IMG/VR virus record: IMGVR_UViG_3300029686_000225
Source of the DNA: a virus
Lineage: Duplodnaviria > Heunggongvirae > Uroviricota > Caudoviricetes
Length of the DNA stretch: 48,664 nt
Reading direction: 5' to 3' (one strand)
Shown: positions 10,531 through 26,224 of the stretch, one piece after another
How the letters are laid out: each line of letters begins with the position of its first letter
How positions within the stretch are numbered: position 1 is the first letter of the stretch
Position numbers and translations under genes: made by a program
Notes under the pieces: generated by a model
Told to the model about the DNA's origin: nothing
What the model saw: the letters and a program-made list of their open reading frames with translations, nothing else
The model's database searches: none

Positions 10531-11256
10531 TTAAAGCGAGCGGATACCAACACTGATCAGGTGTTCAGACAGATCCGGCTCCGGTTCACCGCCATTGACC
10601 AGCATCCGGCTCATTGCTGTAAACATCGCAACAGGGCCGTCGATTTTGGCTTCAGGCGTGGATTTATTCGGGAAGATATTGTCGTTTTTGTCCGGTTTTA
10701 CCGTAACGTTAGACATCATCCAGTTCATGACCGGGTGATTACTGTGATGGAAACGTCCGGCATAGACCAGTGATTCCGTTTCCTTCATGGCCTCTGACAG
10801 ATTGCGGACCGTCTGCGGAACTTCCACCAGCGGTATACCTTCTTCAGCCAGCGCCAGACTGAACTGCATTGCACTCCACGGGTCAAATCCCAGTTCCCTG
10901 AGGTTTTCACCACCAATCCATTCCAGTAAGTCACTTTTTATCTGAGCATGATCGATAACATCACCATCCGTCAGGATGAGCTTATCCATCTCCGCCCATT
11001 TCCGGTAAAGTTCTGCCTGCTGCCGCGAGCACCGCTCCAGCCGTCCTTCCGGGAGCCAGAATTTAAAATCAGCATGAACATGTCCGTTATCGGTTCGCCA
11101 GAGTTTTGCCGCCGCACAGATATCAATCTTATGAGCAAGGTCGACGCCGACCCACATGGGATACGTTTTCAGCTCATGTCGTGGGGCAATATATTCGCAT
11201 TTCTCCCACTTAATCATGTCCATCCAGGCAGACTCTGCTGTTACCCACACATTCAT
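10531..11256 (-). CDS. terL: terminase large subunit, C-terminal nuclease part of a gene interrupted by the inserted element
   Basis: Colinear with the C-terminal 240 aa of the intact satellite TerL ([13 protein letters not shown] vs NIWCQGATPWMGN); no N-terminal ATPase domain in this ORF; upstream in frame reads LTKH then a stop. Confidence 0.85.
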
Positions 11257-11260
11257 GTGT

Positions 11261-11274
11261 TTGGTAAGAATATT
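11261..11274. repeat. left junction repeat of inserted element (att core TTGGTAAGAATATT)
   Basis: 12 of 14 identical to 26211-26224; 7-bp perfect core TTGGTAA; lies in terL codons L-T-K. Confidence 0.7.
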
Positions 11275-11520
11275 TCAAGTTTTTTAAAATCACCTGTATA
11301 TCAATCGTTTAACATGAAAAAACAGTCTTTATAAATCATCAAGCAATACACAGCGCAATACACGTATCTGTATTGTTTTAATGCTGATACACACCGTTTT
11401 TTGATATAGTGATTCGACCTACCATCGCGAAGCATTTTTTATTTCTTGTGTGTAACAATCTGACGAGGTGAGCACTCAAAGAGATAAGAGGCAGTAGAAA
11501 TTTCGATCCCCCCCTGAATG

Positions 11521-11701
11521 CAATTTTTCGTATATATATACAAAACAGCGCGGGTTATGCGGGTTAGCGGGTTATCTTCGCGTGCTAAGTATTTTTACTC
11601 TTTAATATCAATGCGTTAAAAAACAACGTATTTAAATATCAGCCAGAATGTAACCCGCAAGACATTCAAAATAACCCGCAAACACCCCTCAAATAACCCG
11701 C
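11521..11701. repeat. iteron cluster (GCGGGTTA x3 direct, TAACCCGC x3 inverted) with adjacent (TA)n tract
   Basis: Direct copies at 11550, 11559, 11567; inverted at 11651, 11672, 11694; alternating TATATATATA at 11531-11545. Confidence 0.7.
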
Positions 11702-11782
11702 AAAAACATCCCTGAAAGTGGGTACCGGTAATACTGAAAATTTATTCCATTAAATGAGCATTGTCCTCTCTCATCCATTCCG

Positions 11783-13444
11783 TTACACACCATCAAACGC
11801 CGCAAGCCGCTCTTTGTGGCTGTCGCTCATATCGAATGCAAATTCCTCATGCTCTGCCTGGAATGTGCCAAACGCCATCAGCGCCGCAACGCTCGGGTCT
11901 ATCTTGTTGGATGATTTTTTCTTGTTCGGCTTGATATTGGCGTTCGCGTCACTCTGCATCACAACATTACTCATTGACCAGGCCAGCACCGGATCACCAC
12001 GATGCACAATCACCTTCCGGTTAACAAAAACTTCGAACGATTTCGCCGCCGGACTGAAACGAAGGTATGTTTGCGGGAACGGCTCCACCTCAAATCCTGC
12101 GCCCTGTAGCTGCGTCCTCAGGTGCGTGGCGTTCCATGTATCGAAACCCACCAGCCTGATATTGAAATTCTCTGCATCCGCCATGATGTCATCACGGATA
12201 CGGTCATAATCAATGCAGTCACCCGGTGTTGTGCGTATCCAGCCCGCCTTTACCCACTGGCGATAGATGGCGCGGTTTTTATTGGCGGGGTTCTGTAGCT
12301 GAAATTCCGGCAGATAGTGACGGGAAACCAGCATAATCTTTTTACCGACCGGAAAGGCATAGCACACGCTGGAAATATCGCTGGTTGATGATAAGTCCAG
12401 CCCCGCGTAGCACTCCTGCCCGTATAAATCCGCCTCCGCGAACGTTCCGGCGCACTCCGCCCATGCACCATTACCCATCCACGGCGTAGCCCCCTGACAC
12501 CAGATATTGAATCGCTTGGTGAGCATTTCCACCCACTGCGACGGAATACCCCGCGCTTTCTGGATGGTTGAGGCCAGTTTTTCACGATCGACGGAAACAT
12601 CGATATTGGGATTCGCCTTTATCCACATCTCCGGATCGTCAACCTCGCTTTCATCATCCAGCTCGTAAATCAGCACGAACATGGATTCGTTCACCTCTTC
12701 ACCATCCAGTATCTGGCAGCAATAGTCGTAGTGTTGTTTACAGGCTGAAACAACGTTGCTCCCCGATGTGGTGATGGCAAATAATAACCCCTCCGGGCGT
12801 GCCCCCATTCCCAGTTCAAGCGCGGAATAAACCCCGTTGTCAGGGTGCAGGTGATATTCATCCACAATGGCAAGACTCGGGTTTGTACCTTCAATGGTTG
12901 CCGCTTTTGCTGCCAGCGGCTTTAACAGGCTGTTGGTTTTTGGGTGTATCACCTTGTGTGCCTGAATATTTACCCGCTTTCGTAACGGTCGGGATAAAAG
13001 GCACATCTGACGCGCATCATCAAACACGATCCGCGCCTGATCACGACTCACGGCGGCGGTGTAAATATCCTGCTGCCCGTTTTCCATAACCAGAAACCAG
13101 TTAGCCAGGATAGCGGCGACCGTGGATTTGGCATTTTTTCGCGGTACTTCAATGAATGCGCTGGTGTATTTGCGCCGCCCGGTGGCCTTAACCTTAAAGC
13201 CCAGGATGCACGCAAAGGCGAACTGCTGCCACGGCTCCAGTTTAATTGGGCTACCGCGCATTGCGCCTTTTACGTGCGGACACACCCTGGAAAAGGCAAT
13301 AAACCGCTCCACGACCTCCGGATCGAACGTGTAAAGGGGGTTTTCAAGGTCATAAAAATACCGTTTAACGGCCTGTTTCAGTCGTTTACAGGCCGTAATT
13401 TTGCCGTTTTTTACGCCTTCTGCGTACTCATGCCAGGCGGTCAA
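11783..13444 (-). CDS. terL: terminase large subunit (satellite copy, intact)
   Basis: 553 aa; P-loop-like region RKNAKST, Walker B IVDEYH, C-terminal nuclease domain; TTG start with GAGGA RBS, overlapping terS end. Confidence 0.9.
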   Translation of the reverse strand: MTAWHEYAEGVKNGKITACKRLKQAVKRYFYDLENPLYTFDPEVVERFIAFSRVCPHVKGAMRGSPIKLEPWQQFAFACILGFKVKATGRRKYTSAFIEVPRKNAKSTVAAILANWFLVMENGQQDIYTAAVSRDQARIVFDDARQMCLLSRPLRKRVNIQAHKVIHPKTNSLLKPLAAKAATIEGTNPSLAIVDEYHLHPDNGVYSALELGMGARPEGLLFAITTSGSNVVSACKQHYDYCCQILDGEEVNESMFVLIYELDDESEVDDPEMWIKANPNIDVSVDREKLASTIQKARGIPSQWVEMLTKRFNIWCQGATPWMGNGAWAECAGTFAEADLYGQECYAGLDLSSTSDISSVCYAFPVGKKIMLVSRHYLPEFQLQNPANKNRAIYRQWVKAGWIRTTPGDCIDYDRIRDDIMADAENFNIRLVGFDTWNATHLRTQLQGAGFEVEPFPQTYLRFSPAAKSFEVFVNRKVIVHRGDPVLAWSMSNVVMQSDANANIKPNKKKSSNKIDPSVAALMAFGTFQAEHEEFAFDMSDSHKERLAAFDGV

Positions 13445-13784
13445 GCTCGTCCTCTTCCTCTGTTTCCGGTGGATTTCTGCGGCGGCTTACCGGGTCAAAA
13501 CCCAGCAAAGAAGCCATTTTGATCATTATTCTTTCTGCGTCAGCCTTTGCGCTCAGAGCGGGGTTTCTGCTTTCGCTGCCCTGACTGTTAACAATGCTGA
13601 AGCCGCGCGTCGCAAGGTCTTCGACGGCTTTGCGGTATATGGAGTAGTTAACGCAATACAGTTCCAGATTGCTCCAGTCGGCGGGGGTAAGGTCTTCCCG
13701 CCCGGAAAGCTGGCGCGATTTTTCCTTCCACTGCCTGACCGCGATTTCATCCAGGTAAGCGGGGGCTTTTGGTGGTCTTGCCAT
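13428..13784 (-). CDS. terS: terminase small subunit (P27 family)
   Basis: Starts MARPPKAPAYLDE; homologous to the prophage TerS (MSGPPKTPPRL...); immediately upstream of terL. Confidence 0.8.
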   Translation of the reverse strand: MARPPKAPAYLDEIAVRQWKEKSRQLSGREDLTPADWSNLELYCVNYSIYRKAVEDLATRGFSIVNSQGSESRNPALSAKADAERIMIKMASLLGFDPVSRRRNPPETEEEDELDRLA

Positions 13785-14072
13785 GTTCTTTTTTCGCCCA
13801 ATTATTTTCAAAAAAATTTCCGTGCACAAAAATTTGAGGAGGCGGTCGGTGTCCGGCAGGGACGGTTTTGTCCTGAAAACCTCCCCCACCCCCTCTGACG
13901 GCCTCACCAGCGATTGCGAAAACATTCCATGACCTCGCGGTCACGGTCGGTTAATCGCTTCGCTGTGGTGCGTTCTGTGCGCCCTGTCCTGTTGGCTTTG
14001 TGCCCTGTCTCCTGTGTCTTCCATAAGTCACGCTGCCTTATCAGTCCACGTATCAGCCTGTTTTGCTCCTGT

Positions 14073-14513
14073 TCAGTCATCATCGCCATACATCCAGTCG
14101 TTACGGTGTGCCGCCCGTTCTTCCTGCTCGCGATACATACCCGCCTTACGGTTCGCTTTCGTGGCTGGATCTTCCCGTGTTGTCTTACGGTTATGGCACG
14201 TCTGGCACAATGCCTGGTGGTTCCACTCAGGCCAGAAGAGAACATCACCGCCGCCATTGATGGGAATGATGTGATCCACCACAAGAGCTGGCGTATAAAT
14301 CCCCTTAGCCAGACAACGCACGCATAACGGATTTTTGCTCAGGTACAGGGCGCGGTATTTGTCCCACTGTCGGGAATACCCGCGCGCGCGGCGGTGTCCC
14401 CGTCTGGCATCCTCTGCACGCCATGCAGCCCGCCTGTGATCTTCGCACTTGCCGGACTTCACGCGCTTATTACAGCCCGGCTCAGTGCATCGCCTTAATG
14501 GTTGCCACGGCAT
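14073..14513 (-). CDS. HNH endonuclease (packaging-associated)
   Basis: Cys-rich Zn motifs and HNH core (DHIIPINGGG ... CQTCHNRK); located upstream of terS. Confidence 0.85.
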   Translation of the reverse strand: MPWQPLRRCTEPGCNKRVKSGKCEDHRRAAWRAEDARRGHRRARGYSRQWDKYRALYLSKNPLCVRCLAKGIYTPALVVDHIIPINGGGDVLFWPEWNHQALCQTCHNRKTTREDPATKANRKAGMYREQEERAAHRNDWMYGDDD

Positions 14514-14812
14514 CAGTACACCCCTACATCACGATAAACCGACCAGAGCGCAGAAATAGCCATAGGCAGTTCAGACTGCTCCACAGGTGAAACCGCTTCC
14601 CTGTTCTCGTACAGGAAAGCGATGTACATCAGGCAACCAACACGTATTGCCGGGGTAAATTCCAGCCCGTCTTCAAAACGTTTCCCGATATGCTTCTGGC
14701 AGGCTTCCAGCGCCGCATCGGTATACATTTTCAGAAGTTCGCCTTCTCCGGAAAAGTCATCAAGGCGAAGATGTGCCCTGACTTCATCAGGTGTAATTTT
14801 TTCTTCACTCAT
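14513..14812 (-). CDS. gp6-like head-tail connector protein
   Basis: Starts MSEEKITPDEVRAHLRLDD, the gp6-like signature; GGTGA RBS. Confidence 0.65.
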   Translation of the reverse strand: MSEEKITPDEVRAHLRLDDFSGEGELLKMYTDAALEACQKHIGKRFEDGLEFTPAIRVGCLMYIAFLYENREAVSPVEQSELPMAISALWSVYRDVGVY

Positions 14813-16019
14813 CTTTTTCACCTTTAATTTCCACCGTCTGCTTCCATGCCTGGCTGAATTCGTCGCCACCTTCACGCGGCGGCATCCCCTCACGTTCGCG
14901 GGCTTCGTTCGGATTCATGATCCCGTTCTTAATCCCTTTCTCATACGTGGCGTAACGTTCGGTAGGGGTGGCGCGTAATAAATCGGCTGAATCAAACTCA
15001 ACCAGATAACGGGTACCAGGTACGGGAGAAGCCACCAGCAAAGCGGCCTTAATTTGCTGTTCGAAGTTCGCCAGCCATGGGCGCATTGTCATGGTCAGAA
15101 ACGCGCGGCTTGCCTCGCTGAAATTGCTGTAGGTGCTGTTGCTGTATTCCTGCAGAAAAATAGGCGATACGTTGAACATCCGGGCGATGTCTTCAATGGA
15201 GAAGCGACGGGAGGCCAGCCATTCCGCATCCTGGTTACTCATCCCCAGTTGCTTGTAATCCATGCCCCCTTCAAGGATTGGCGTTTTTCCGGCATTTTTC
15301 GCCCCCTTGTAGCGTTCCAGGGCGTCTAATGCCTGTTTACCTTTCACGCCGTCCAGCCATTCGCCTGACGTGATAATCCCTGCCGCCATCATGCCATCTT
15401 TCATAATGCTGGCTCCGTGACGCTGTTGAGCAAGGCCAAGCCCCAGCGCCTCACGGCAAATCGTGACGGGGGAACGTCCCAGAAAGCCATCATCCGAGGC
15501 ATAGCGGAGATGCAGGACTTCTTCCTGTAAATACGTGCGTACCGTTCCTGTATAGGGTTCGGTGATGGTATAGCGGTATTTGTGTGCGCCTGTGCGTTCC
15601 GGTACAACACACCCCGGCGCATAAGGATGAAGTGATTTTGGCTGACCGTCCCGCCCCCATTCAATAACCGCATAGGCGTTACCGTTCAGCAGGCAGTGAC
15701 GCATCATTGTGCGTTTAAACTGGTAAGGTGTCTGGCACGAATTAGGCTGCTCATTCAGCAGAATATCTACCGGATGACTGTCCAGCCATTCCCGCGCCTC
15801 CCTGCCCTTGTCATTACGTACCAGATACAGATAACACGGCATCGTGGCCACCGCCTCAGCGATGACGGAAACCGCGTTCATCACAGCAGGCAATGATTCA
15901 GCCGTCCCGGCAGAAACATATTCTCCGGATCCGGTATTCGGTACGCCGGACAGCGCCAGAAAATCATCAATGGACAGGTTACGCAGATCGCTTTTTTTAC
16001 GACTAAAAGGCCACCACAT
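14805..16019 (-). CDS. portal protein, HK97 family (satellite)
   Basis: About 404 aa with portal-family pattern; start directly after protease stop. Confidence 0.85.
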   Translation of the reverse strand: MWWPFSRKKSDLRNLSIDDFLALSGVPNTGSGEYVSAGTAESLPAVMNAVSVIAEAVATMPCYLYLVRNDKGREAREWLDSHPVDILLNEQPNSCQTPYQFKRTMMRHCLLNGNAYAVIEWGRDGQPKSLHPYAPGCVVPERTGAHKYRYTITEPYTGTVRTYLQEEVLHLRYASDDGFLGRSPVTICREALGLGLAQQRHGASIMKDGMMAAGIITSGEWLDGVKGKQALDALERYKGAKNAGKTPILEGGMDYKQLGMSNQDAEWLASRRFSIEDIARMFNVSPIFLQEYSNSTYSNFSEASRAFLTMTMRPWLANFEQQIKAALLVASPVPGTRYLVEFDSADLLRATPTERYATYEKGIKNGIMNPNEAREREGMPPREGGDEFSQAWKQTVEIKGEKDE

Positions 16020-16020
16020 A

Positions 16021-16581
16021 TCACAACCCCGCCAGTTCAGCCCAGCGATGACGATTATTTCCTGTCGGGCGTAATTCAGGGTGCTGTGCAAACAACGAAC
16101 GGTGGGCAATCTCCACGCCGGATTCGGGATAAGCAGGCATCGACGTTATCGTGATTTCACGGAGTTCTGCGGCGGTAACAGTGCGCAGATACGGTTTTTG
16201 CGCGATATTCCATTCTTCGCATAATGCGCGAAAGCCAAAGCTCATTCCTGTAATGTCGCCACGCTCCACCAGCGTAAGCACATCTTTTCCAAGCTGGGTA
16301 TCAGGCGGTGTCAGTTCAAAACGTAGCCCGGTGTTGTCCTCAGTCAGTACCAGTGTTCCGGATTTGGTGCGCCCCAGCAGTCGGGTATAGTCATGCTCAT
16401 ACAGGCAGCGCACATCATTACCCGCCGCCAGATAGTCAGCAAAAGCCCCCGGCGTGAACTGTTCGCGGAATTCGTCCCAGATAATTTCTGAAAGGCTGTT
16501 CCAGCGAACGGCATAACCCACCAGTTTTTTATCGCTGGCGGTCAGTTCAGATGTACGGATTTCAAAATCGGTATTTTTCAT
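16021..16581 (-). CDS. prohead protease, HK97 family (satellite)
   Basis: About 186 aa; GGAG RBS; motifs LGRTKSGTL and MSFGF typical of the prohead protease family. Confidence 0.8.
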   Translation of the reverse strand: MKNTDFEIRTSELTASDKKLVGYAVRWNSLSEIIWDEFREQFTPGAFADYLAAGNDVRCLYEHDYTRLLGRTKSGTLVLTEDNTGLRFELTPPDTQLGKDVLTLVERGDITGMSFGFRALCEEWNIAQKPYLRTVTAAELREITITSMPAYPESGVEIAHRSLFAQHPELRPTGNNRHRWAELAGL

Positions 16582-16630
16582 CGGTGTACTCCATAAAGCT
16601 GAAAAAGGAGGCCGAAGCCCCCTTTGCTCA

Positions 16631-17776
16631 TTACTTGCCAGCCTGAATTTCCAGAATCTTGATGGCGTTCGAATCCACCACACCACCGCCCAGATATTTC
16701 TGGGTATAGATGTTAATGAATCCGGGTTCGCTGAAATCCGGACGGGTTCGCGTACCGGTTTCATGGTCAACGATGAAATAACCGCGCTTAAAGTCACCTA
16801 CTGCAATCACACCGTCCGGCATAAATTCCAGATATTCAACCGGAAGCCCCAGCAGAGAATCAGGATCACCAGCCTGTAAACGATCGCGCCAGATGTAATC
16901 ACCAGTGGCATTTTTCAGTTTTTGTGCGGAGGCGGCTGTATTTGAGTTCATCACCCATACAGCTTTTTTGCGGTACTTATTGCGTAGCGTAAATTTCAGG
17001 TCAATCAGCATGTCGGCGCTGAGACTGCCAGTCACTTTTTTCGTCTGGAGCGTACCGAAAGGACGGGTTTTGTCGTTATCCGCAGTGCGCGGAAAAGCCA
17101 GGAAACCTTTAGCTTTTTTCTCGCCATCACCAGAAACCAGATCCGTTTCTTCGGTATCAACGAAAGTGTCGCCAATTTCAGAAGATAACCAGCTCATAAT
17201 ATCGACTTCGGAAAAATCGATAATTTCCTGAGTGGTTTTTGGGTAAGCGTAGATCGGATACAGGCGGATACTGACTTCATTCAGTTTTGGGGTTGCCGTC
17301 TGGTTACGTGTAGTGCCTTCTTCACCGTGTTCAACGACCGCGCCCCCGGCAGAAACCAGTTGCTTAAATTCATTGCTGTGAATGGTTTTAACGGTACAGA
17401 TTTTACGCATCACCGATTCATCAGAAAGCTGACGCATAATTTCTCTGTTCAGTTCCGGGATAACCGTATAACCACCATCAGCCGGGACACTGCCAGACAG
17501 GTTGCGGGTTTCCCCGGTCAGAATGTAAGAGCGCAGTTCGTCTTTGGTTATTTTCTCTTCGACGGAAACACCAGGCTGGTTACGTTCTTCATCAGCCACA
17601 GATTCGAGGCGGGAAATTTCTGTGTCGAGGGAATCGGCTTTTGCACGCAGTTCATCAAACTGTTTGCCCTCGTCATCGTTCAGGCTGCGGTTTTCACTGT
17701 CGGCTTTTTCCAGCAGGGATCGCATCTGGTTTTTCAGGGCGGTTTTTTGCTGGCGGAGTTCGATTAATTTCTTCAT
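16631..17776 (-). CDS. major capsid protein, HK97 family (satellite)
   Basis: 381 aa with N-terminal coiled coil and HK97-like core. Confidence 0.9.
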   Translation of the reverse strand: MKKLIELRQQKTALKNQMRSLLEKADSENRSLNDDEGKQFDELRAKADSLDTEISRLESVADEERNQPGVSVEEKITKDELRSYILTGETRNLSGSVPADGGYTVIPELNREIMRQLSDESVMRKICTVKTIHSNEFKQLVSAGGAVVEHGEEGTTRNQTATPKLNEVSIRLYPIYAYPKTTQEIIDFSEVDIMSWLSSEIGDTFVDTEETDLVSGDGEKKAKGFLAFPRTADNDKTRPFGTLQTKKVTGSLSADMLIDLKFTLRNKYRKKAVWVMNSNTAASAQKLKNATGDYIWRDRLQAGDPDSLLGLPVEYLEFMPDGVIAVGDFKRGYFIVDHETGTRTRPDFSEPGFINIYTQKYLGGGVVDSNAIKILEIQAGK

Positions 17777-18013
17777 GAAGGTTTTCTCGTATTGGTTAAG
17801 ATTCAGGACGTGAAACCAACACGGAGGGAGCGCCGCCCGACACTCTCGGCATCTCGCAGATCAACCCGGCATCGCGCAGGGGGTCAGGCGGCATTGTGGC
17901 GGCTCACGTCTGAGTGCCACACGCCAACATATACATAAAAATCAGTATGTAAACATCAGCCAGAATCACCGAACAACCTGGAACAACCACGAACAAATAA
18001 TTTACAAAACCTG

Positions 18014-18040
18014 AAAAAAAGACCCGGAAAAATCCGGGCC
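18014..18040 (-). terminator. intrinsic terminator
   Basis: Hairpin CCCGGAAAAATCCGGG flanked by A-run and T-run; minus strand reads hairpin then TCTTTTTTTC. Confidence 0.5.
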
Positions 18041-18049
18041 TTTATCGCT

Positions 18050-18298
18050 TTATTGTTTCACTGGATCCCGCATTCTGCGTCTTATTTTCCACAGATATTC
18101 GATCATCGCTTCCACCTGCTCACGGTTGGTTGCGAAAATTTCCCCGGTCAGTGAGCTACGCAGAAAATCATGATGATCCACAACAAACAACGCATCGGAA
18201 GAAAGCAGACGGCGATATTTTTTTGCTGTCGTGGTTTCCAGATCATCAAAACCATGAAATTTTTTATGTTGCTGGACTTCTTCAAATGTCACTGGCAT
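18050..18298 (-). CDS. hypothetical protein
   Basis: 82-aa ORF with AAGGGGG RBS; no recognisable motif. Confidence 0.5.
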   Translation of the reverse strand: MPVTFEEVQQHKKFHGFDDLETTTAKKYRRLLSSDALFVVDHHDFLRSSLTGEIFATNREQVEAMIEYLWKIRRRMRDPVKQ

Positions 18299-18831
18299 GT
18301 ATCCCCCTTTACTGCCCGGCGCTGGCGCTTGTGCTTCTCATTCAGCGCCATCAGCCGCGTTTCTGCCTCCTGCTGTTCCTGTGGTGTCACCTCGCCGCAC
18401 GGCTGGCCTTTCAGGTCGTAACGTGCACCACCAGCCATTAAGGCGCGGTAATAGCGCGGAGACTGCGCATAGGATGCCAGCGTCGCACGTAATGCCCCCG
18501 GCCCGAATGTCAGCCCCCTGGCGGCGATATCCTGCATCAGGTCGTCGCATATCCCCACCTTAAGCGGCTTCGGTGCTTCCCGGCTGAATAAGTCAGGCCA
18601 CATCTCTGTGAGGCGGTTAACGCGCCTGCGGTTTTTGCGCTGGCGTTTGGTCATATGCCGCCACGGTGTCGCCTCTGTGGGCTTCTGTTTGCGGCTCTGC
18701 TGTGCGTTCTGATTGCCGGGCATCACTTTATGCGCCGATGTGGCTTTATCCTGCTGCTGTGCCGTCTGCGTTGTTTTCTGCGGCGTGCCGTAAATGCCTT
18801 TCGGTTTTCGGTTAATGGTCAGCGTTGTCAT
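18289..18831 (-). CDS. ProQ/FinO-family RNA-binding protein
   Basis: C-terminal region PLKVGICDDLMQD...LRATLASYAQSPRYYRALMAGGARYDLKGQPCGEV resembles the ProQ/FinO domain; basic N-terminus. Confidence 0.65.
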   Translation of the reverse strand: MTTLTINRKPKGIYGTPQKTTQTAQQQDKATSAHKVMPGNQNAQQSRKQKPTEATPWRHMTKRQRKNRRRVNRLTEMWPDLFSREAPKPLKVGICDDLMQDIAARGLTFGPGALRATLASYAQSPRYYRALMAGGARYDLKGQPCGEVTPQEQQEAETRLMALNEKHKRQRRAVKGDTCQ

Positions 18832-18867
18832 GCTTTCCCCTGTAATAACTCTGTTCGCTGTTGTGAA

Positions 18868-19293
18868 TTAAAACGGTATGTTATCCCCGTACGGGTCATC
18901 GTGCTGGCTTGTCTGTTGTTTTGCCCTGTTCAGTGCGTCAGTGGCCTGGCCCTGCTGGCCTTTTTTGCCGCCCGGTCGCGCCGTTCGCGCACTGATTACG
19001 CTGTCTGCGATAACCTGCCAGCCCTGTCGCGTTTCCCCGTTCTGGCCTGTCCACTGGCTTACCTGCATGTTACCCGCCACGCTCACCAGTTCGCCTTTGC
19101 GGTGTTTTGCCAGTGCGTCGGCCTGTCTGCCAAACGCCAGGACAGATAACCACATCGTCGCCGTTCCGTCATCTGCCTGGCTGCACGGCAGGGGAACCGC
19201 CATACTCGCCATAGCCATTTGTGTCCCCTTGCTGGTGGTCTTTAACTGCGGGTCAGCCACCAGCCGCCCGTAAGCCGCTATCTGTGCTGTCAT
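18868..19293 (-). CDS. ssb: single-stranded DNA-binding protein
   Basis: OB-fold pattern and acidic C-terminal tail ...DDPYGDNIPF. Confidence 0.8.
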   Translation of the reverse strand: MTAQIAAYGRLVADPQLKTTSKGTQMAMASMAVPLPCSQADDGTATMWLSVLAFGRQADALAKHRKGELVSVAGNMQVSQWTGQNGETRQGWQVIADSVISARTARPGGKKGQQGQATDALNRAKQQTSQHDDPYGDNIPF

Positions 19294-19357
19294 GCTGTCT
19301 GTTCTCCGGTTTTAACGTTGATTGTTACGCTTGTTTACACCCTTACGGTGAAATTCT

Positions 19358-19480
19358 GCGGGTTATAATCGCACTTTTGCGGGTTATAACTGCCGTTTTG
19401 CGGGTTACGTGCGGGTTATTGATTTCCTTTTTATTCATACAGTTAATGCACTTATGCACAGGATAACCCGCATAACCCGC
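19358..19480. repeat. candidate replication origin iterons (GCGGGTTA x4 direct, TAACCCGC x2 inverted)
   Basis: Direct copies at 19358, 19379, 19400, 19411 (21, 21, 11 bp spacing); inverted at 19464, 19473; immediately 3' of the primase-helicase gene. Confidence 0.7.
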
Positions 19481-19503
19481 AACTTTTCACCTCACACAGG
19501 GGG

Positions 19504-21627
19504 TTAATCTTCTGCCTCAGGCTGGAACATCAGCACGTAAAAAACATGCTGCTTCCCCCCAATTTTGCCGAGCGCCTTTTTCTTGTAACGGCGATCGTTA
19601 CCCGCTTCCAGCATTCCGGCAGCACTCAACGCGCGGGCAAAGTGAGACGGATTAAATCCCTGTGCTATCTCACCCTCAAATACATGCGGGAACGTGTAAA
19701 AACGGAACTCGTCATCTTCGTTTCTGATACACCCCTTTCTGTATCCGGCAAGCTCTTTAATCGGTAAATCACGCTCGTCGGTGTTGGGCCACGGAAGGTA
19801 TCTGCTGAATCCGAACGACGCTAAAAAAGCCTCTGCCTGTTCAACCATCTGTTTAAACTCCCTGTTACCCGTGCCGAACTCCTTCACCCAGGCATTAAAA
19901 TTATGCTGAATGGCATCGCGGCACGCCTGAACATCCCAACCAGTAATATGGACGGAAAGCACCAGCGCCGACTCCAGCATGGCGAATCGTTCCCCCACAC
20001 GGTGAACCTGTTCGCCGTAACTCTCCGGTATCAGGTTGCGCCACCGTTCACGGCATGCCCTTACCGTATCCTTTGCCTCCTGCTGGTGGTCTGCCAGCCA
20101 TTTAACCCATTCACGCCCCGCCGCCCCGTGATTTTCTGTCCAGGCATCCTTTAACGCGTCTGCGTGTGCCTTTCCGGTGCTGTATTCGTGAAACTGCGTG
20201 GCTTTTTCCATTGGCACGTTAAGCAGGCGGACAAGCTGCCCCGCCTTGACTTTTATCCCCTCCGTTTTGAGGAATGTCTCAACGTCCATTTCTCCGGTGC
20301 TGATTGCCACCGTGCGCCAGTGTTTGATCTCCCTGTTGCCGCCGTCCTTCGCCCCCTGTAATTTCCCCGAACCGTTAAACAGCGTATAAGCCGACGTGGA
20401 CACTTCCCGCGCGTTTCCGGCCTGGCCTATTTCATCCAGGGGTAAAAGCCCGTCATTGTGTGCCTCTGCTTCGTTGGCGATACCTAACGCTGTGCCGTAC
20501 CAGGTCAGCCGCTGCGCGTCCGGCTCTCCCCATAAACTTGATGCGATGTTCTGCGTTGTGGTCTTACCTGCCGATGACTGTTCGAAAAGATGTACCCCGA
20601 AGCCGTCAGCACCCACCAGCCCGATTAATGGTGCGGATAGCGATACCGCCACACCCAGCATCATGGACGGATTACCACCAGCCAGTCGCGCCACACTGTC
20701 GCGCCAGCCCTCCGCCGTTCCTGCCACGGAATAACCATTAACGGCAGCCGTTTTTCCGGTAAACAGGACTGGCTTTTCGCAATCACCAATGACCGAACCG
20801 TCCGGCATGATGTACGCGCCAAAATGCCAGCCCGTTGTTGTGCTTAACTGCCATTCCTCATGGTTTCCGCTTAACTGCATCCAGTCAGCCAGGATAGCCC
20901 TGTATTTACCGTTGGTTGTCACGTTCAGTCCGTGGTCTTTCAGCAGCCGCCAGCCGTCACGGTCGCCAATGCCACCGCACGGAACCGCCATCGTGATGAC
21001 TTCATGGTTTGCTGGCTTTTTCCAGCGCATCACGCGGTAATGCTCTTTGCCGATTGTCCCCGTTCCCAGTAGCTCAAGCGGGGAGCATAACCACGTTTCA
21101 GGCCGGATAATTTCGCCTGACTGCTTATCCACTTTTGGCGTTACCCAGAAAACACCATCGGCGCGGCTTTCAACGCGGGGCTTTAATTCATCATCACCCG
21201 GGCTTTCTGTGATTTTTTTCTTTAAGGGCAACACCAGACTTTCCCCGCGCTCGTATTCGTCTTTGAGGCGAGGCAACTGGTCGGATAAATCCGCCGGGCT
21301 GGTGTCAGTTATCCCCGCGTATTCGTATACGGTCTTCACGCCAGCCACAGCCAGCAACGTGACGATCTGTGTGAGGCTACGTTCAGTGATGTGCCCTGCG
21401 CGGTAAATACGCACACACTGACGGCTATCATCAATAATTTGATAACCGGTAATATCTTTCAGGTGTTCATCTGACAGAACGACAGGCGGCACATTGTCGG
21501 CGGCAATATGCTTACCTGCCCATTCCTGCCACTCTTTCGCATGGCTCCACGCATCACTACCCGCAAAGATGATAACCTCCGTCATTTTGTCGGCTGGCTG
21601 GTGCTTTAAGTTTGGTGCGCGCTTCAT
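19504..21627 (-). CDS. replication initiator, putative primase/helicase
   Basis: 707 aa with Walker A-like SSAGKTT; sits next to the iteron cluster as PICI/P4 replication genes do. Confidence 0.7.
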   Translation of the reverse strand: MKRAPNLKHQPADKMTEVIIFAGSDAWSHAKEWQEWAGKHIAADNVPPVVLSDEHLKDITGYQIIDDSRQCVRIYRAGHITERSLTQIVTLLAVAGVKTVYEYAGITDTSPADLSDQLPRLKDEYERGESLVLPLKKKITESPGDDELKPRVESRADGVFWVTPKVDKQSGEIIRPETWLCSPLELLGTGTIGKEHYRVMRWKKPANHEVITMAVPCGGIGDRDGWRLLKDHGLNVTTNGKYRAILADWMQLSGNHEEWQLSTTTGWHFGAYIMPDGSVIGDCEKPVLFTGKTAAVNGYSVAGTAEGWRDSVARLAGGNPSMMLGVAVSLSAPLIGLVGADGFGVHLFEQSSAGKTTTQNIASSLWGEPDAQRLTWYGTALGIANEAEAHNDGLLPLDEIGQAGNAREVSTSAYTLFNGSGKLQGAKDGGNREIKHWRTVAISTGEMDVETFLKTEGIKVKAGQLVRLLNVPMEKATQFHEYSTGKAHADALKDAWTENHGAAGREWVKWLADHQQEAKDTVRACRERWRNLIPESYGEQVHRVGERFAMLESALVLSVHITGWDVQACRDAIQHNFNAWVKEFGTGNREFKQMVEQAEAFLASFGFSRYLPWPNTDERDLPIKELAGYRKGCIRNEDDEFRFYTFPHVFEGEIAQGFNPSHFARALSAAGMLEAGNDRRYKKKALGKIGGKQHVFYVLMFQPEAED

Positions 21628-21938
21628 TTTGCCTTTCCCCGTTCACGAATAATTTCACGTACTGCCTTAATGCGTTCCATTCCTGTAACGCGCATGATTC
21701 TGTCGATGTCGCTTAATTCTGCTGGTGGTGCTTTGCTTACCAGGGTGAACTCCCTGTCAAAGCGCATATGTGACGACACGCAGGGATGCGCATAACCTTC
21801 GCGGATATAGGTCACACGAAAATCATCGACGGTTTTAATCGTTATCGTGCTGCCGTATTTATCCCGGAAAATATCACCGGGGCGGATTTCAGGCCGAGCG
21901 TGACCGCTGGCAGTAAAGCCAGAATTTTTCTTTTTCAT
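21624..21938 (-). CDS. hypothetical protein
   Basis: 104-aa ORF; stop overlaps primase start (ATGA). Confidence 0.5.
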   Translation of the reverse strand: MKKKNSGFTASGHARPEIRPGDIFRDKYGSTITIKTVDDFRVTYIREGYAHPCVSSHMRFDREFTLVSKAPPAELSDIDRIMRVTGMERIKAVREIIRERGKAK

Positions 21939-21944
21939 GTTTTT

Positions 21945-22163
21945 TTACTCCAGAGGCAGCTTTTTAGCGGCGAGCTCAATATCAGATGTCAGAGAAACCT
22001 GTGTATTTGCCAGGTCTAACAACAAAGAAATAAGAATTTCTTCTCTGCTATCGGATTTATCGGTGCTAAGGCTGTTCATCCACATATTGACGACTTCCCT
22101 GATTTTTTTCGCAGAGTGCAGGGCTTCAAATGCCAGGTCTTCAATATCATGTTTATTTCGCAT
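21945..22163 (-). CDS. hypothetical protein
   Basis: ATG at 22163 with G-rich RBS; 72 aa. Confidence 0.4.
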   Translation of the reverse strand: MRNKHDIEDLAFEALHSAKKIREVVNMWMNSLSTDKSDSREEILISLLLDLANTQVSLTSDIELAAKKLPLE

Positions 22164-22398
22164 AATCGCCCCCGCCATTTTCACAATCAGCAATCAGGAT
22201 GGCTTTAGCCTCATTCAGCGCCATATCAGCGGTAAGCTGTGCGTAAGCCAGCGAATGCGGGATTATCGCCCCTGTATATTCCGTCTCTCTGGTAATGTGT
22301 TTTTCTGCGGTTGCTGCCGTGCATGAAATATCAATCAGCGCGTGCATTAGCGTTTTGATGGCTTCGGCGGCTGCGTCCGGACGGGTGTTATTGCACAT
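22153..22398 (-). CDS. hypothetical protein
   Basis: 81-aa ORF with AGGGGG RBS. Confidence 0.45.
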   Translation of the reverse strand: MCNNTRPDAAAEAIKTLMHALIDISCTAATAEKHITRETEYTGAIIPHSLAYAQLTADMALNEAKAILIADCENGGGDYAK

Positions 22399-22594
22399 GG
22401 CGTACCCCCTGACGAATACGGGCGGCGAATACCATCACGCAACCAGCCGGGGATTGCTGGCGTGCTTCCTGTTCGCTGGTGGCCTCAATGGTAATCACGC
22501 GCGGTTGTGCCGTGCTCAGGGCGATAAAACGCCAGATGTATTTATTCAGGTTGTGCGAGTCCCGCCCTTGCGGGTGTGTGGTATGATTTCTCAT
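22388..22594 (-). CDS. hypothetical small protein (first gene of leftward operon)
   Basis: 68 aa; ATG at 22594 with GAGGT RBS; only the 3' 207 nt of the 363-aa track ORF is taken as real. Confidence 0.4.
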   Translation of the reverse strand: MRNHTTHPQGRDSHNLNKYIWRFIALSTAQPRVITIEATSEQEARQQSPAGCVMVFAARIRQGVRHVQ

Positions 22595-22691
22595 AGCTAC
22601 CTCGATACTTCTGCTATCGTTGGTGGTTAGAAGCCCTGCGAGTGGTAACGACACTTGCGGGGCTTTGCATTTATGCGCCTTGATAATTTTA

Positions 22692-22727
22692 AGGTGTGGC
22701 CCACTATATGTTTTAGGTGTGGCCCAC
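22692..22727. promoter_or_regulatory. two 13-bp direct repeats AGGTGTGGCCCAC in a divergent promoter region (candidate operator)
   Basis: Repeats at 22692-22704 and 22715-22727, 23 bp apart, followed by TATACT and the RHH gene RBS. Confidence 0.45.
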
Positions 22728-22793
22728 GTCAAGAGTTTTATTTGTGCTTTTTCTGTGTATACTGTCCCCCACCAATCCACCAGAGGAATAGAA

Positions 22794-22973
22794 ATGGCAA
22801 CGGGTACAACAAACGCAAAATCACAAGCTCTAAAGGCTCGTGTACCACACGAAATAGTAAACGCCATGGAATCAGTGAAAGAATCAGGCGAAAGCACATC
22901 ACAATTCATCATTACGTCAATGCAAGGCGAGATCAAACGCCGCCAGCGTCGCAAGGCCAAAGAGCAGGAGTAA
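22794..22973 (+). CDS. putative ribbon-helix-helix-type regulator
   Basis: 59-aa ORF with AGGA RBS; only plus-strand gene in the element. Confidence 0.45.
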   Translation: MATGTTNAKSQALKARVPHEIVNAMESVKESGESTSQFIITSMQGEIKRRQRRKAKEQE

Positions 22974-23310
22974 CCATCACCAGCGCCGTGGTGTGAGGAA
23001 TCACGGCGGCAACCATAGGAGTAAAAGATGCCAAAACTTAAAAATTGTGCACTCTGTGCGATTGTTCTAATTGTCGCCGCCTTTATCTTAAAATCATGCT
23101 TCGAGAAAAAGAATCTTTGCGGAAGCAATGAAGGCGATATATTACGGCGTGCTTGCGATATAGAGTTGAAAAAAAGTTGAGCATAACCTAACCGCGACAA
23201 TGCCGTAGTTCCTGTAATTACAGAACAGCTCAGGATTTGCCCACCAGCCGCAAATGTGGCATTGTTGGTTATGCTCATGCGTTGGGGATAACGTGTAGCT
23301 TGTGTCAAGG

Positions 23311-23339
23311 GGCCACCGTAGCGGGTGGCCTTTGTTTTG
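23311..23339 (+). terminator. intrinsic terminator (plus strand)
   Basis: GGCCACC-GTAGCG-GGTGGCC then TTTGTTTTG. Confidence 0.5.
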
Positions 23340-23376
23340 CCTGTTATCCTGCAACTATGGTCATTTCGACCACGGT

Positions 23377-23465
23377 TGATATAATCCCCCCGCACAGATT
23401 CATTTTTTGCGCAGTAGGTTAATTGTTCGCAAGGGCGCTCCGGTAACGGGGCGCTTTTTGTTTTT
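23377..23465 (+). ncRNA. candidate small RNA (extended -10 promoter to intrinsic terminator)
   Basis: TGATATAAT at 23377-23385; hairpin GCGCTCCGGTAACGGGGCGC plus T-run at 23435-23465; no ORF. Confidence 0.3.
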
Positions 23466-23623
23466 ACCCACCAGCACAATAAAAATCTTCATTTTCCATT
23501 TTTGTAAAATTTCATGCTTTCCGGACGACTGGTAATATGTCATTTTTTAGCAGAAGATTTTGCCTTGCTGGTGGGTAGCTTCCCGGTCAACACGATGTAC
23601 CGTATAATCAACACCGCGTGTGG

Positions 23624-24217
23624 TTACTGAATACGCTCACCAAAGTAAAACTCAGGCTGGTATTCACGTATCAGCCTTTTTTCTTCTTCCTCCAGTTCAC
23701 GCTTTTTGCGCTTACATGCCTGTAGCTCCCTCCCCTTCTCGCTGGCACTTATCTGGTATTGCTCTTTGCGGCGGGAAAAATCCTGTAATGCGCCCCACGG
23801 GATACCATAAGCCCCCGTTTTTCTGATACCCGGTATCACATTTCTGAATACCCAATTACTGAAACGATGGGCGAACGTGCCAGGATTAACAGCTTTGCGA
23901 CTTCTGGCGATCAACTTGTAAAAACCTGATTCTGATACAACATTCCAACTTCTGGCACCACCACGCTTACCTGAATGACCCTCGGTTAAAGCTAGGGTCA
24001 TTACCTCATCGCTATCCAGAACTGAAACAGCATCGGTAACGTTGCTAATTTCCAGCGCCGCACACACATCAGCGCCAACAAACCACGGATCGCCGTTCAG
24101 ATACACCACGCGAACGTTCACACTATCAAAGCGCAGAACGACCAGATCGCGAATATCACAGAATTTTTTCACATGACGTGCGTCACCCTTGCCCGTCGCG
24201 GCAATATTTTTATTCAT
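23624..24217 (-). CDS. Bro-N domain protein (antirepressor-like)
   Basis: N-terminal pattern VRVVYLNGDPWFVGADVCAALEI typical of Bro-N/KilA-N; GAGGT RBS. Confidence 0.65.
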   Translation of the reverse strand: MNKNIAATGKGDARHVKKFCDIRDLVVLRFDSVNVRVVYLNGDPWFVGADVCAALEISNVTDAVSVLDSDEVMTLALTEGHSGKRGGARSWNVVSESGFYKLIARSRKAVNPGTFAHRFSNWVFRNVIPGIRKTGAYGIPWGALQDFSRRKEQYQISASEKGRELQACKRKKRELEEEEKRLIREYQPEFYFGERIQ

Positions 24218-24232
24218 CACTTTCTACCTCAC

Positions 24233-24264
24233 ATACAAAAAACCCCGCATTGCGTGGTGCGGGG
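24233..24264 (-). terminator. intrinsic terminator after alpA
   Basis: Minus strand CCCCGCACCACGCAATGCGGGG then TTTTTTGT. Confidence 0.55.
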
Positions 24265-24274
24265 TTGTCGGTAA

Positions 24275-24553
24275 TTACTTATTGGCGTTTTTGTATGGGC
24301 TGTTTACTTCCTTTACTCCTGGCGGATGCATAACCCACCAGAGCACATCAGAGAGCAACCAGGAAACAGACACTTTCCCTAAATGAGCACGAGCAGGAAA
24401 TGCTCCCTCCTGTTCAAGTACCCAACGTCTGCTTCTTGAAAGCCCGGTACGATTGGCACACTCATGTTCGCGTATACGGCGATCATACGGTTCGCCATGT
24501 TCTTTCAGAATCTGAATGCGTTCTTCGGGTGTAGGATAAATAAATTTTTGCAT
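24275..24553 (-). CDS. alpA: AlpA-family transcriptional regulator
   Basis: HTH_17-like segment TGLSRSRRWVLEQEGAFPARAHLGKVSVSW; GGTGA RBS. Confidence 0.75.
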   Translation of the reverse strand: MQKFIYPTPEERIQILKEHGEPYDRRIREHECANRTGLSRSRRWVLEQEGAFPARAHLGKVSVSWLLSDVLWWVMHPPGVKEVNSPYKNANK

Positions 24554-24566
24554 AAAAATATCACCT

Positions 24567-24592
24567 ATAAAAAAACCCGCCAAAAGACGGGT
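24567..24592 (-). terminator. intrinsic terminator
   Basis: Minus strand AACCCGTCTTTTGGCGGGTT then TTTTTTAT. Confidence 0.45.
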
Positions 24593-24616
24593 TGATTATA
24601 TCTCATTTAATTTAGT

Positions 24617-24838
24617 TCAGGGTTTCCATTCACCCTTTACCCATTCCAGCACCTCAGATAAGCGCCAGACTTTTGTTTGTGGGCCAATACATATTTTCCG
24701 TGGAAATTTTCCTTCCTTTTCAAGTAATGCTCTGTGTCTCCTGCCAAGAGCTGTTAACCATGCACATTCATCTTCCTTAATCATCCTGTCGATTGTTTTA
24801 TCATTTTCAAGTTCTTCACGCGTAACTATTTCAATCAT
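24617..24838 (-). CDS. alpA: AlpA-family transcriptional regulator (second copy)
   Basis: HTH_17-like segment AWLTALGRRHRALLEKEGKFPRKICIGPQTKVWRLSEV; GGTGA RBS. Confidence 0.7.
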   Translation of the reverse strand: MIEIVTREELENDKTIDRMIKEDECAWLTALGRRHRALLEKEGKFPRKICIGPQTKVWRLSEVLEWVKGEWKP

Positions 24839-26039
24839 TACCGTCACCACTAATTAGCTTATTCAGATAGTCGTACCACCAGTTCATAGCTTCTTTTTTT
24901 CTGTCCATATACTGACTTCTGTTATAAACCCCGGCAACACCGCCTAATGTGTGCCCAAGCAACTGTTCAACCACATTATGTTCAAAACCATGATCACTTA
25001 GCTTTGTGGCAAACACTCTTCGCATATCATGCGCCGTCCATTTTTCCGAGTGTTTCATCCTTTTCCATGTCTTACCGATAGTTACGCTTGCCGTACACTG
25101 ACGCATATCAAACCCAATCACATTTTCTTTGTTACCTGTTATTTTTTTTAACGTAACTAACCAGTTAAACATGCCATCAGGAATCGGTCTGATTATTTCC
25201 CTGCCATTTTTGCTATGATCAGCGGGAACGCGCCATAATTTCTTATCAAAATCCCACTCTACCCAGGACGACAGTAATACTTCTGACAGTCGACAACCAA
25301 AAACTACCAGGAAACGTAAAATAATTCGGTTTTCATATGATAATTCGTGATTGTCATAATCAGTATTAATACTTCGCCATAAATCTCTGATTTCATCATC
25401 TGTTAAAACCCTGCTTCTTCGCGCAGACTTTTTTCCCACATCACAGACCTCAAGATCATCAATTTCATGACTAATCGCGTATTTTCTTACCCTACAAAAT
25501 TTAAGCGCCTGTTTTGATATACGCAACAAAGCTCCGGCCTGTACAGGTGCTACTTTTTTTATTTTGTCAAAACACTTGATCCACATAGATATAGAGCAAT
25601 CACTAAGTGGTACATGACCAATCACCGGATAAATATGTTTACCAAAGCACTGCCTGATATGTTCTGCTCCCCTACGCTTATCCATTGCATAATTATCAAG
25701 CCAGTATTCAAGTGCCTCACGAACGGTAACAGGTTGCAAGGTGGCTTCCCGTTCAATTTTTATCTGAATCCGTGGATCTCTGCCCTCCGCAAGCCAGGTT
25801 CGACACTGATCGCGCATCTCTCTCGCTGATTTGAGACTCAGATCAGGATATTTTCCAAGTGTCAGCCAGATGGGCGCGGTTCCCCTTCCCGCCAGTCTGT
25901 AAAAGAAAACAAAACTAACACATCCGTATTTACTGACCCGTACCGAAAGCCCGTTACCATCAGCGATGGTTTCCTGCCTCTCACTCCTGCGCCCAAGCAG
26001 GGAACGAAGTTTTTTATCGCTCAGTTTGTTTAGCGCCAT
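24831..26039 (-). CDS. int: tyrosine integrase (P4/PICI-type) of the inserted element
   Basis: About 402 aa; C-terminal catalytic region with R...H..R and HDMRR...LLGH...Y; adjacent to the element junction. Confidence 0.85.
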   Translation of the reverse strand: MALNKLSDKKLRSLLGRRSERQETIADGNGLSVRVSKYGCVSFVFFYRLAGRGTAPIWLTLGKYPDLSLKSAREMRDQCRTWLAEGRDPRIQIKIEREATLQPVTVREALEYWLDNYAMDKRRGAEHIRQCFGKHIYPVIGHVPLSDCSISMWIKCFDKIKKVAPVQAGALLRISKQALKFCRVRKYAISHEIDDLEVCDVGKKSARRSRVLTDDEIRDLWRSINTDYDNHELSYENRIILRFLVVFGCRLSEVLLSSWVEWDFDKKLWRVPADHSKNGREIIRPIPDGMFNWLVTLKKITGNKENVIGFDMRQCTASVTIGKTWKRMKHSEKWTAHDMRRVFATKLSDHGFEHNVVEQLLGHTLGGVAGVYNRSQYMDRKKEAMNWWYDYLNKLISGDGND

Positions 26040-26210
26040 GTGATTTATAACCCGTTTTTGCAATACACAGTGCAATACACAAATGATGAAAACAGCCAGA
26101 ACCTTCCAGAAAAAACAAAAACGACGAACAAGAAAAAATCTTTTTCTTTCATTTGGTTACTAAAAAAATCAGGACAGGTCGCACTGTTGTTACGGCGTGA
26201 TGTTACTTTC

Positions 26211-26224
26211 TTGGTAAAAAAATT
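26211..26224. repeat. right junction repeat of inserted element (TTGGTAAAAAAATT)
   Basis: Partner of 11261-11274; lies in terL codons F-T-K. Confidence 0.7.

Follow-up and report, generated by a model that had tools for sequence, protein, structure and literature searches.

The window, by which we mean the whole 48,664-nucleotide stretch of viral DNA analysed here, carries a lambdoid HK97-like prophage (the helper) whose large-terminase gene, terL, is split by a second element, a tail-less satellite with its own head and packaging genes (Table 1). The genes for helper TerS and HNH endonuclease precede terL in the late operon, and those for portal, protease, capsid, head-tail joining proteins and tape measure follow it. 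The helper also encodes a holin, an endolysin, antiterminator Q and a LexA-like (S24 peptidase) repressor, with its integrase at the far end, and the window's end falls inside its tail module. Also on the minus strand of the helper is a type II restriction-modification-like pair, in which the gene for a C-5 cytosine methyltransferase (35948-37045) overlaps that for a 703-aa protein (37038-39149) with an N-terminal GHKL ATPase domain and matches to PADLOC REase_II models. Downstream of the antiterminator Q gene, tRNA-Lys(ttt) and tRNA-Met(cat) lie beside an AraC-family regulator (31842-32735, minus strand); this group looks like a moron cluster in the late-regulatory region, and related helpers carry other tRNA sets at the equivalent position.

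Table 1. Features of the split helper terL gene, its junctions and the embedded satellite, in window coordinates unless a handle is given.
Feature	Position	Strand	Basis or remark
Helper terL 3' fragment (residues after F-F-T-K; most of the nuclease domain)	10531..11260	-	Translation; collinear with intact terL
Junction far from int (attR, in the element's own orientation)	11261..11274	.	Core TTGGTAA 11261-11267, then element-derived GAATATT
Satellite body (helper-embedded, capsid-forming PICI-type; 14,950 bp including one core copy)	11268..26210	-	Identified genes all co-oriented with terL
Doubled TGTATTGC motif (presumed arm-type site), 78-100 bp upstream of the attP centre, coding strand	11341..11364	-	
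Satellite TerL, 553 aa	11783..13444	-	Pfam TerL_ATPase and TerL_nuclease
Satellite TerS (Terminase_4 / P27 family)	13428..13925	-	Pfam
Satellite HNH endonuclease (packaging accessory)	14073..14513	-	
Satellite head module: head-tail connector, portal, prohead protease, major capsid protein	14513..17776	-	Pfam Phage_connect_1 (weak), Phage_portal, Peptidase_S78, Phage_capsid
Replication zone: ProQ/FinO-domain protein, SSB, DUF927 primase/helicase-type protein, DUF4222	18289..21938	-	
Bro-N domain protein (Bro zone)	23624..24220	-	
Two AlpA-family HTH proteins (presumed excisionase/activator)	24275..24850	-	Pfam Phage_AlpA, both ORFs
Tyrosine integrase	24831..26039	-	Pfam Phage_integrase and Arm-DNA-bind_3
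Second doubled TGTATTGC motif, 133-155 bp downstream of the attP centre, coding strand	26058..26081	-	
Junction adjoining int (attL, in the element's own orientation)	26211..26224	.	Core TTGGTAA 26211-26217, then terL-derived AAAAATT
Helper terL 5' fragment (ATPase domain and first ~60 nuclease-domain residues)	26218..27238	-	Translation, Pfam
Helper TerS	27238-27720	-	Upstream of terL in the late operon
Helper HNH endonuclease	27868-28221	-	Upstream of terL in the late operon
Core allele positions	Window 11261-11267 and 26211-26217; L006 3970 and 19379; L005 19381; L009-L143		

The break in terL falls at codons 341-343. The 5' part lies in an ORF (26045-27238) that encodes the N-terminal portion of TerL as far as …ARVNFFTK and continues with 54 unrelated satellite codons to a TAA stop (26047-26045). 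The 3' fragment has no start of its own, and its equivalent bears the RefSeq label 'terminase TerL endonuclease subunit, missing N-terminus'.

Within the satellite, the head and packaging ORFs are all open, and no damage is seen in the two alpA genes, the two arm motifs or the two cores. Pfam searches of the scanned satellite ORFs returned no match to tail or lysis families. We set the integrase start at ATG 26039, the mechanical ORF reaching TTG 26075; its DNA is 100% identical to that of strain ETEC4085, where it is annotated as a 1209-nt CDS. The true start of satellite TerS probably lies inside the tabulated ORF, the annotated homologues being 357 nt long. At gathering thresholds, Rfam detected neither C4 nor isrK, the P4-type immunity RNAs, anywhere in the window, its sole match being a tRNA. 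A mechanical ORF of 363 aa with a TTG start (22388-23479, minus strand) matches PHROG 'transcriptional repressor' families over only its last ~80 residues; because relatives have several small genes there (Icd-like, YlcI/YnfO), the long frame is probably not real. At the ProQ/FinO gene (18289-18831, minus strand), most homologous terL-embedded elements instead carry a PerC-family regulator, and a relative at hpt-gcd (L144) also has ProQ/FinO. We additionally considered the satellite's own terL as a copy of the target, but at the homologous position it reads CTCACCAAG with diverged flanks; self-targeting was ruled out on this ground, and the satellite gene should for the same reason escape as a target.

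The earlier note had singled out two 14-mers as the ends of the insertion, and both lie where it placed them: TTGGTAAGAATATT at the junction far from int and TTGGTAAAAAAATT at the junction adjoining int share a perfect 7-bp core and agree at 12 of 14 positions. At the base composition of the window, the probability of a random match per position pair is 6.4e-5 for 7/7 and 3.4e-6 for at least 12/14. TTGGTAA occurs three times on the plus strand of the 48.7-kb window, two of them exactly at the terL homology breaks. On the coding (minus) strand the two copies do occupy (F/L)-T-K codons of the same terL frame, reading N-F-F-T-K|K-V on the int side and N-I-L-T-K|H-M on the other.

To map the crossover, we aligned attL, attR and the empty site (attB). 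Left of the core, the junction at 11261 is terL and the junction at 26211 is insert, and right of it the origins are reversed, with the two variable positions (G, T versus A, A) element-derived at 11261 and terL-derived at 26211. Because these positions swap origin between the junctions, strand exchange must have fallen within TTGGTAA (TTACCAA on the coding strand), whose 7 bp are the usual overlap length of tyrosine recombinases (Tommasini, Mageeney & Williams 2023, NAR Genom Bioinform 5:lqad036, PMC10111431). The predicted attB junction is GAATTTTTTTACCAAACACATG (core context …GTGAATTTTTTTACCAAACACATGAATG…) and the predicted attP junction AATATTCTTACCAAGAAAGTAAC (core context …GAAATATTCTTACCAAGAAAGTAACATC…).

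In-silico deletion of 11268-26217 (14,950 bp) fused the halves of terL in frame into an uninterrupted ORF of 585 aa without a frameshift, the length foreseen in the earlier note, and kept the conserved parts of the protein, with the Pfam TerL_ATPase (112-268) and TerL_nuclease (283-563) domains both intact. As also anticipated, the rebuilt protein aligned nearly end to end with the 553-aa TerL of the satellite (10-575 versus 7-541, 31% identity, E = 4e-86). Its alignment to an intact TerL (L001) contained no gap and 584/585 identical residues. At the DNA level the two genes showed 44 differences spread over both halves, of which 43 belong to synonymous codon changes; no frameshift or stop was seen, and neither terL fragment bears signs of decay. 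The rebuilt TerL further matched the solved large-terminase chain 6z6d_A (E = 1e-35), which we take to be the HK97 terminase. A 1200-bp query spanning the rebuilt junction aligned in one piece, at 97-98% identity, in 906 of 5426 complete E. coli genomes, at a locus annotated 'terminase large subunit', and likewise in one piece in 11 Escherichia phage records. The prediction that excision would restore terL without a scar is thus supported for the terL site.

The insertion recurs. The segment comprising int and its junction is present in 36 complete E. coli genomes, with a terL fragment under the match in 36/36; the junction far from int was found in 34 E. coli genomes, and the integrated junction in 15 IMG/VR contigs. 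In E. coli 042 and ETEC4085 the nested arrangement is identical gene for gene. The repeat, whose absence from homologous insertions would have counted against the earlier note, flanks all five complete ones that we fetched, with the core identical at both ends: four carry TTGGTAA/TTGGTAA and one (strain 06-00048) TTCGTGA/TTCGTGA. Together with the intact rebuilt ORF, the adjacent tyrosine integrase and the fixed site, these repeats in homologues bear out the note's reading of site-specific integration rather than a degenerate pseudogene.

The core exists in two forms, which on the coding strand are TTACCAA and the synonymous TCACGAA, both encoding F-T-K. Among the IMG/VR matches listed for the empty site (at least 120), 101 had TTACCAA, 16 had TCACGAA and three had the hybrid TCACCAA; the 15 occupied sites divided into ten TTACCAA and five TCACGAA. 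The integrase DNA is ~99-100% identical between elements of either allele. The same allele at both ends would be expected from a tyrosine-recombinase overlap that needs attP and attB to match. One could imagine an arms race in synonymous terL sites, in which helpers evade embedding by silent overlap changes and satellites follow by switching their attP core; we regard this as a long shot, and plain neutral polymorphism accounts for the same core-allele data. The accessible parts of PMC10111431 contain no discussion of such an arms race, or of whether the ATPase-only TerL fragment might act as a dominant negative.

A decayed composite lies by potB in E. coli GF31 (L005, NZ_CP172152.1, 12864-20276), where the satellite of an 'abandoned' helper-embedded pair is cut off after the Icd-like gene and abuts a tail-fibre fragment, the terL 5' fragment being truncated as well. 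The satellite's 6-kb head/packaging module (11783-17776) is more widespread, occurring in 538 of 5426 E. coli genomes, whereas the terL-targeting integrase occurs in only 36. A 97%-identical module belongs to the element at hpt-gcd (L144), with a different integrase, and one 81% identical in DNA lies between phoQ and roxA in O157:H7 (L145), again with another integrase. Such near-identical head modules, at chromosomal sites and joined to other integrases, indicate that integration modules are exchanged among satellites.

The arrangement corresponds to that of helper-embedded PICIs (HE-PICIs), described as PICIs inside, and co-oriented with, helper-prophage late genes (PMC10111431). The published set, assembled by searching for integrases similar to that of the founder, 11capE, holds 491 instances from 14 sites (PMC10111431), and the paper appears among the references of de Sousa et al. 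Its supplement lists the site group A_Terminase_1_246 with the att identity 'ttaccaa' (PMC10111431); the main text names the site A:Terminase_1:245, and the supplementary files use A_Terminase_1_246. A terL-embedded satellite at exactly this site, down to the 7-bp core, is therefore already published (2023, PMC10111431), and the novelty that the earlier note had implied falls away, since both site and identity block were tabulated there. The window attL is identical to the published attL of Eal37.16.A_Terminase_1_246 at 163/163 positions and the window attR to its attR at 114/119, with 5/5 differences in the helper terL part.

PMC10111431 reports a doubled motif, tgTGTATTGCantgTGTATTGCa, as unique to HE-PICIs, its distance from the attP centre being 81 ± 2 bp on the upstream and 132 ± 2 bp on the downstream side, and records that no IHF-like site was seen in them. 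In the attP reconstructed from the window, doubled TGTATTGC spans -100 to -78 and +133 to +155, with single copies starting at -98, -86, +135 and +147 relative to the core centre. The downstream copy fits the published spacing exactly, and the upstream one comes within ~3 bp of the published 81 ± 2, varying with how the distance is taken. The window integrase scored 404 bits against the 11capE integrase of NRG857c (50% identity over 396 aa, BLASTP), which places it in the class by one pairwise score just above the cutoff of the published search (400 bits, TBLASTN; PMC10111431) and not by a tree. As HE-PICI co-orientation demands, int, alpA and primase are all on the minus strand like terL. The four-zone order of integration (int, AlpA), Bro, replication (primase, SSB) and late genes is present, and the interrupted gene is the helper's, with TerS/HNH on one flank of the split terL and portal/protease/capsid on the other. 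As read from the window, all testable defining features of HE-PICIs are found in this satellite.

The stop (TAA) of the terL 5' ORF lies 5 nt before the integrase ATG (26039-26047), a spacing that hints at translational coupling. We rejected this candidate: in 11capE (L003) the corresponding stop precedes int by 133 nt, and the Arsenophonus member of A_Terminase_1_246 has it ~20 codons past the core. With the stop far from int in both, the close spacing is probably coincidence.

We consider it very likely that the window holds a 15-kb PICI-type satellite (HE-PICI, A:Terminase_1:246) that entered terL by attP x attB recombination, and that this step would be reversible by Int/AlpA with scarless restoration of the 585-aa TerL. 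On this reading, the satellite tyrosine integrase joined attP to attB in terL by exchange within the 7-bp TTACCAA (coding strand), leaving one core copy at each junction. Because the element carries no replacement sequence, helper terL is split into a 5' fragment with the ATPase and a 3' fragment with the nuclease. On induction, the composite of helper and satellite would excise from the chromosome and replicate; the satellite, being co-oriented with the late operon, probably replicates passively as part of the helper and probably owes its expression to Q-antiterminated late transcription. That transcription would pass from terS across the terL 5' fragment and on to int and alpA, and we found no terminator-like hairpin on the coding strand between the terL 5' fragment or junction and int. 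Int together with AlpA, the presumed directionality factor, would then remove the satellite plus one core copy and rebuild the 585-aa TerL without a scar, and helper terminase would be made only once the satellite has left. The satellite itself would fill capsids of its own make with its DNA by means of its TerS, TerL and HNH, and borrow helper tails. The comparisons above show how the composite is built, that its site is specific, that the site also occurs empty and that every part is intact; we infer the continued excision of the window copy, the role of AlpA, the read-through and the delay in helper packaging from the work on 11capE (PMC10111431) and from general knowledge of lambdoid phages.

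Searching for the excised form, we obtained no match in phage records with a 1400-bp query of the reconstructed attP, and exact attP junction patterns covering either core allele likewise drew a blank, with 0 hits each in IMG/VR and the JGI metagenome contigs. The control patterns in IMG/VR matched 15 contigs for the integrated junction and at least 120 for the empty site. Given these matches, the negative result points to excised or packaged forms being absent from the collections, which are mostly assembled integrated genomes, and not to a faulty pattern. A full-text literature search found no experimental follow-up on HE-PICIs.

The missing attP junction in phage records, IMG/VR and JGI contigs would also suit a site-specific insertion that has since become a fixed relic, with excision lost, terL permanently dead and the repeats a historical footprint. 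The degraded composite in GF31 fits that account, as do published observations that many HE-PICI helpers look truncated and that no virions were recovered in the 11capE experiment (PMC10111431). Against it, the int DNA is 100% identical to a copy annotated as intact, the pairs of alpA genes, arm motifs and cores are preserved, the head/packaging ORFs are open, and the terL halves differ from the intact gene by 43 synonymous changes versus one non-synonymous change, with no stop or frameshift. We judge a fixed relic unlikely.

Origins other than integrase-mediated recombination fare worse. A transposase-type insertion would likewise leave a 7-bp flanking repeat whose removal restores the target, but the element's ORFs showed neither a transposase nor terminal inverted repeats, every copy of the insertion occupies one and the same nucleotide position, and a tyrosine integrase with an arm-binding domain flanks the site together with arm motifs at fixed distances. 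Moreover, the element side resembles the target past the core (GAATATT versus AAAAATT, 12/14 overall), like an attP/attB pair, and a target-site duplication is very improbable. Still less credible, to the point of being negligible, is a split arising with no dedicated att site, through chance similarity, misassembly or homologous recombination between terL paralogues. The presence of two homologous terL genes 15 kb apart in the same orientation would permit the last of these, yet their proteins are only 31% identical and their DNA differs at the site. Chance or misassembly is contradicted by the identical architecture in 36 independently finished genomes and by junctions identical to published att sequences at 163/163 and 114/119 positions, and a 12/14 match at a given position pair has a probability of 3e-6. 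Transposition, misassembly and paralogue recombination were thus rejected on site constancy, recurrence and the published att match, which leaves integrase-mediated insertion at a dedicated att site as our preferred reading.

A satellite embedded in the terminase gene of its helper would amount to tight hyperparasitism, in which helper packaging is blocked until the satellite leaves and the satellite meanwhile retains a terminase, capsid and portal of its own. Because hyperparasitic embedding is already established (PMC10111431), the value of the window lies in a clean, independently verified instance; what novelty remains concerns the biology of the terL site and the silent core dimorphism. 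For annotation, the split terL is better read as an occupied att site than as a pseudogene, and the composite as two nested elements. Sequenced strains carrying the terL-site satellite, for example E. coli 042 and ETEC4085, are available.

The closest known system is the site group A:Terminase_1:246, which shares with the window the target gene, codon, 7-bp block, arm motif, co-orientation, size of 15-16 kb and four-zone order; we found no difference of substance, and the window is a further instance. Eco567.11capE, lying in capsid gene E of prophage 50icd, is likewise a satellite in, and co-oriented with, a helper late gene. It has alpA, Icd-like, DUF4222, primase and SSB genes in common with the window satellite and also carries a paralogue of the gene that it interrupts. 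In contrast, its target is codon 80 of capsid gene E, its identity block is 10 bp, it measures 11 kb, and its late genes are limited to capsid and decoration; since it is without terS and terL, it is presumed to use the helper cos machinery (PMC10111431). Its own capsid gene likewise differs at the site and is thus not a target (PMC10111431). After mitomycin C treatment, 11capE was reported to excise with formation of exact attB and attP, as measured by qPCR and deep sequencing (PMC10111431).

Like the cf-PICIs (prototype EcCIEDL933; Alqurainy et al. 2023 Cell Host Microbe; 10.1101/2022.09.08.507074), the window satellite is tail-less and has a full capsid and packaging module. Its 14,950 bp agree with the cf-PICI architecture of 10-15 kb with int, regulators, capsid, protease, portal, connector, HNH, TerS and TerL and no tail or lysis genes; as far as its genes alone tell, it works like a cf-PICI. 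It differs in having another integrase and in sitting within a prophage gene. Typical of cf-PICIs are small capsids of their own, with only the tails taken from the helper. By definition, cf-PICIs insert at chromosomal attB sites that prophages never use (10.1101/2022.09.08.507074), whereas the attB of the window satellite is inside a prophage gene, a departure that follows from its HE-PICI integration module.

In its recombination, the window resembles the lambda Int system, with a tyrosine integrase bearing an N-terminal arm-binding domain, a 7-bp overlap and arm sites on both sides. For lambda Int, the 7-bp overlap must match between the partners, and arm-type sites lie at fixed distances from the core. 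The arm motif of the window, doubled TGTATTGC, is by contrast of the HE-PICI type.

The consequences for the target gene recall regulated gene integrity, for which the Bacillus subtilis skin element in sigK and Listeria phi10403S in comK are examples: there, as in the window, a gene is interrupted by an element that brings no substitute end, and exact removal of the element makes the gene whole again. HE-PICIs have been likened to regulated gene integrity and active lysogeny (PMC10111431). Unlike in those cases, the gene interrupted in the window is that of the helper phage, and the presumed beneficiary is the satellite and not the cell.
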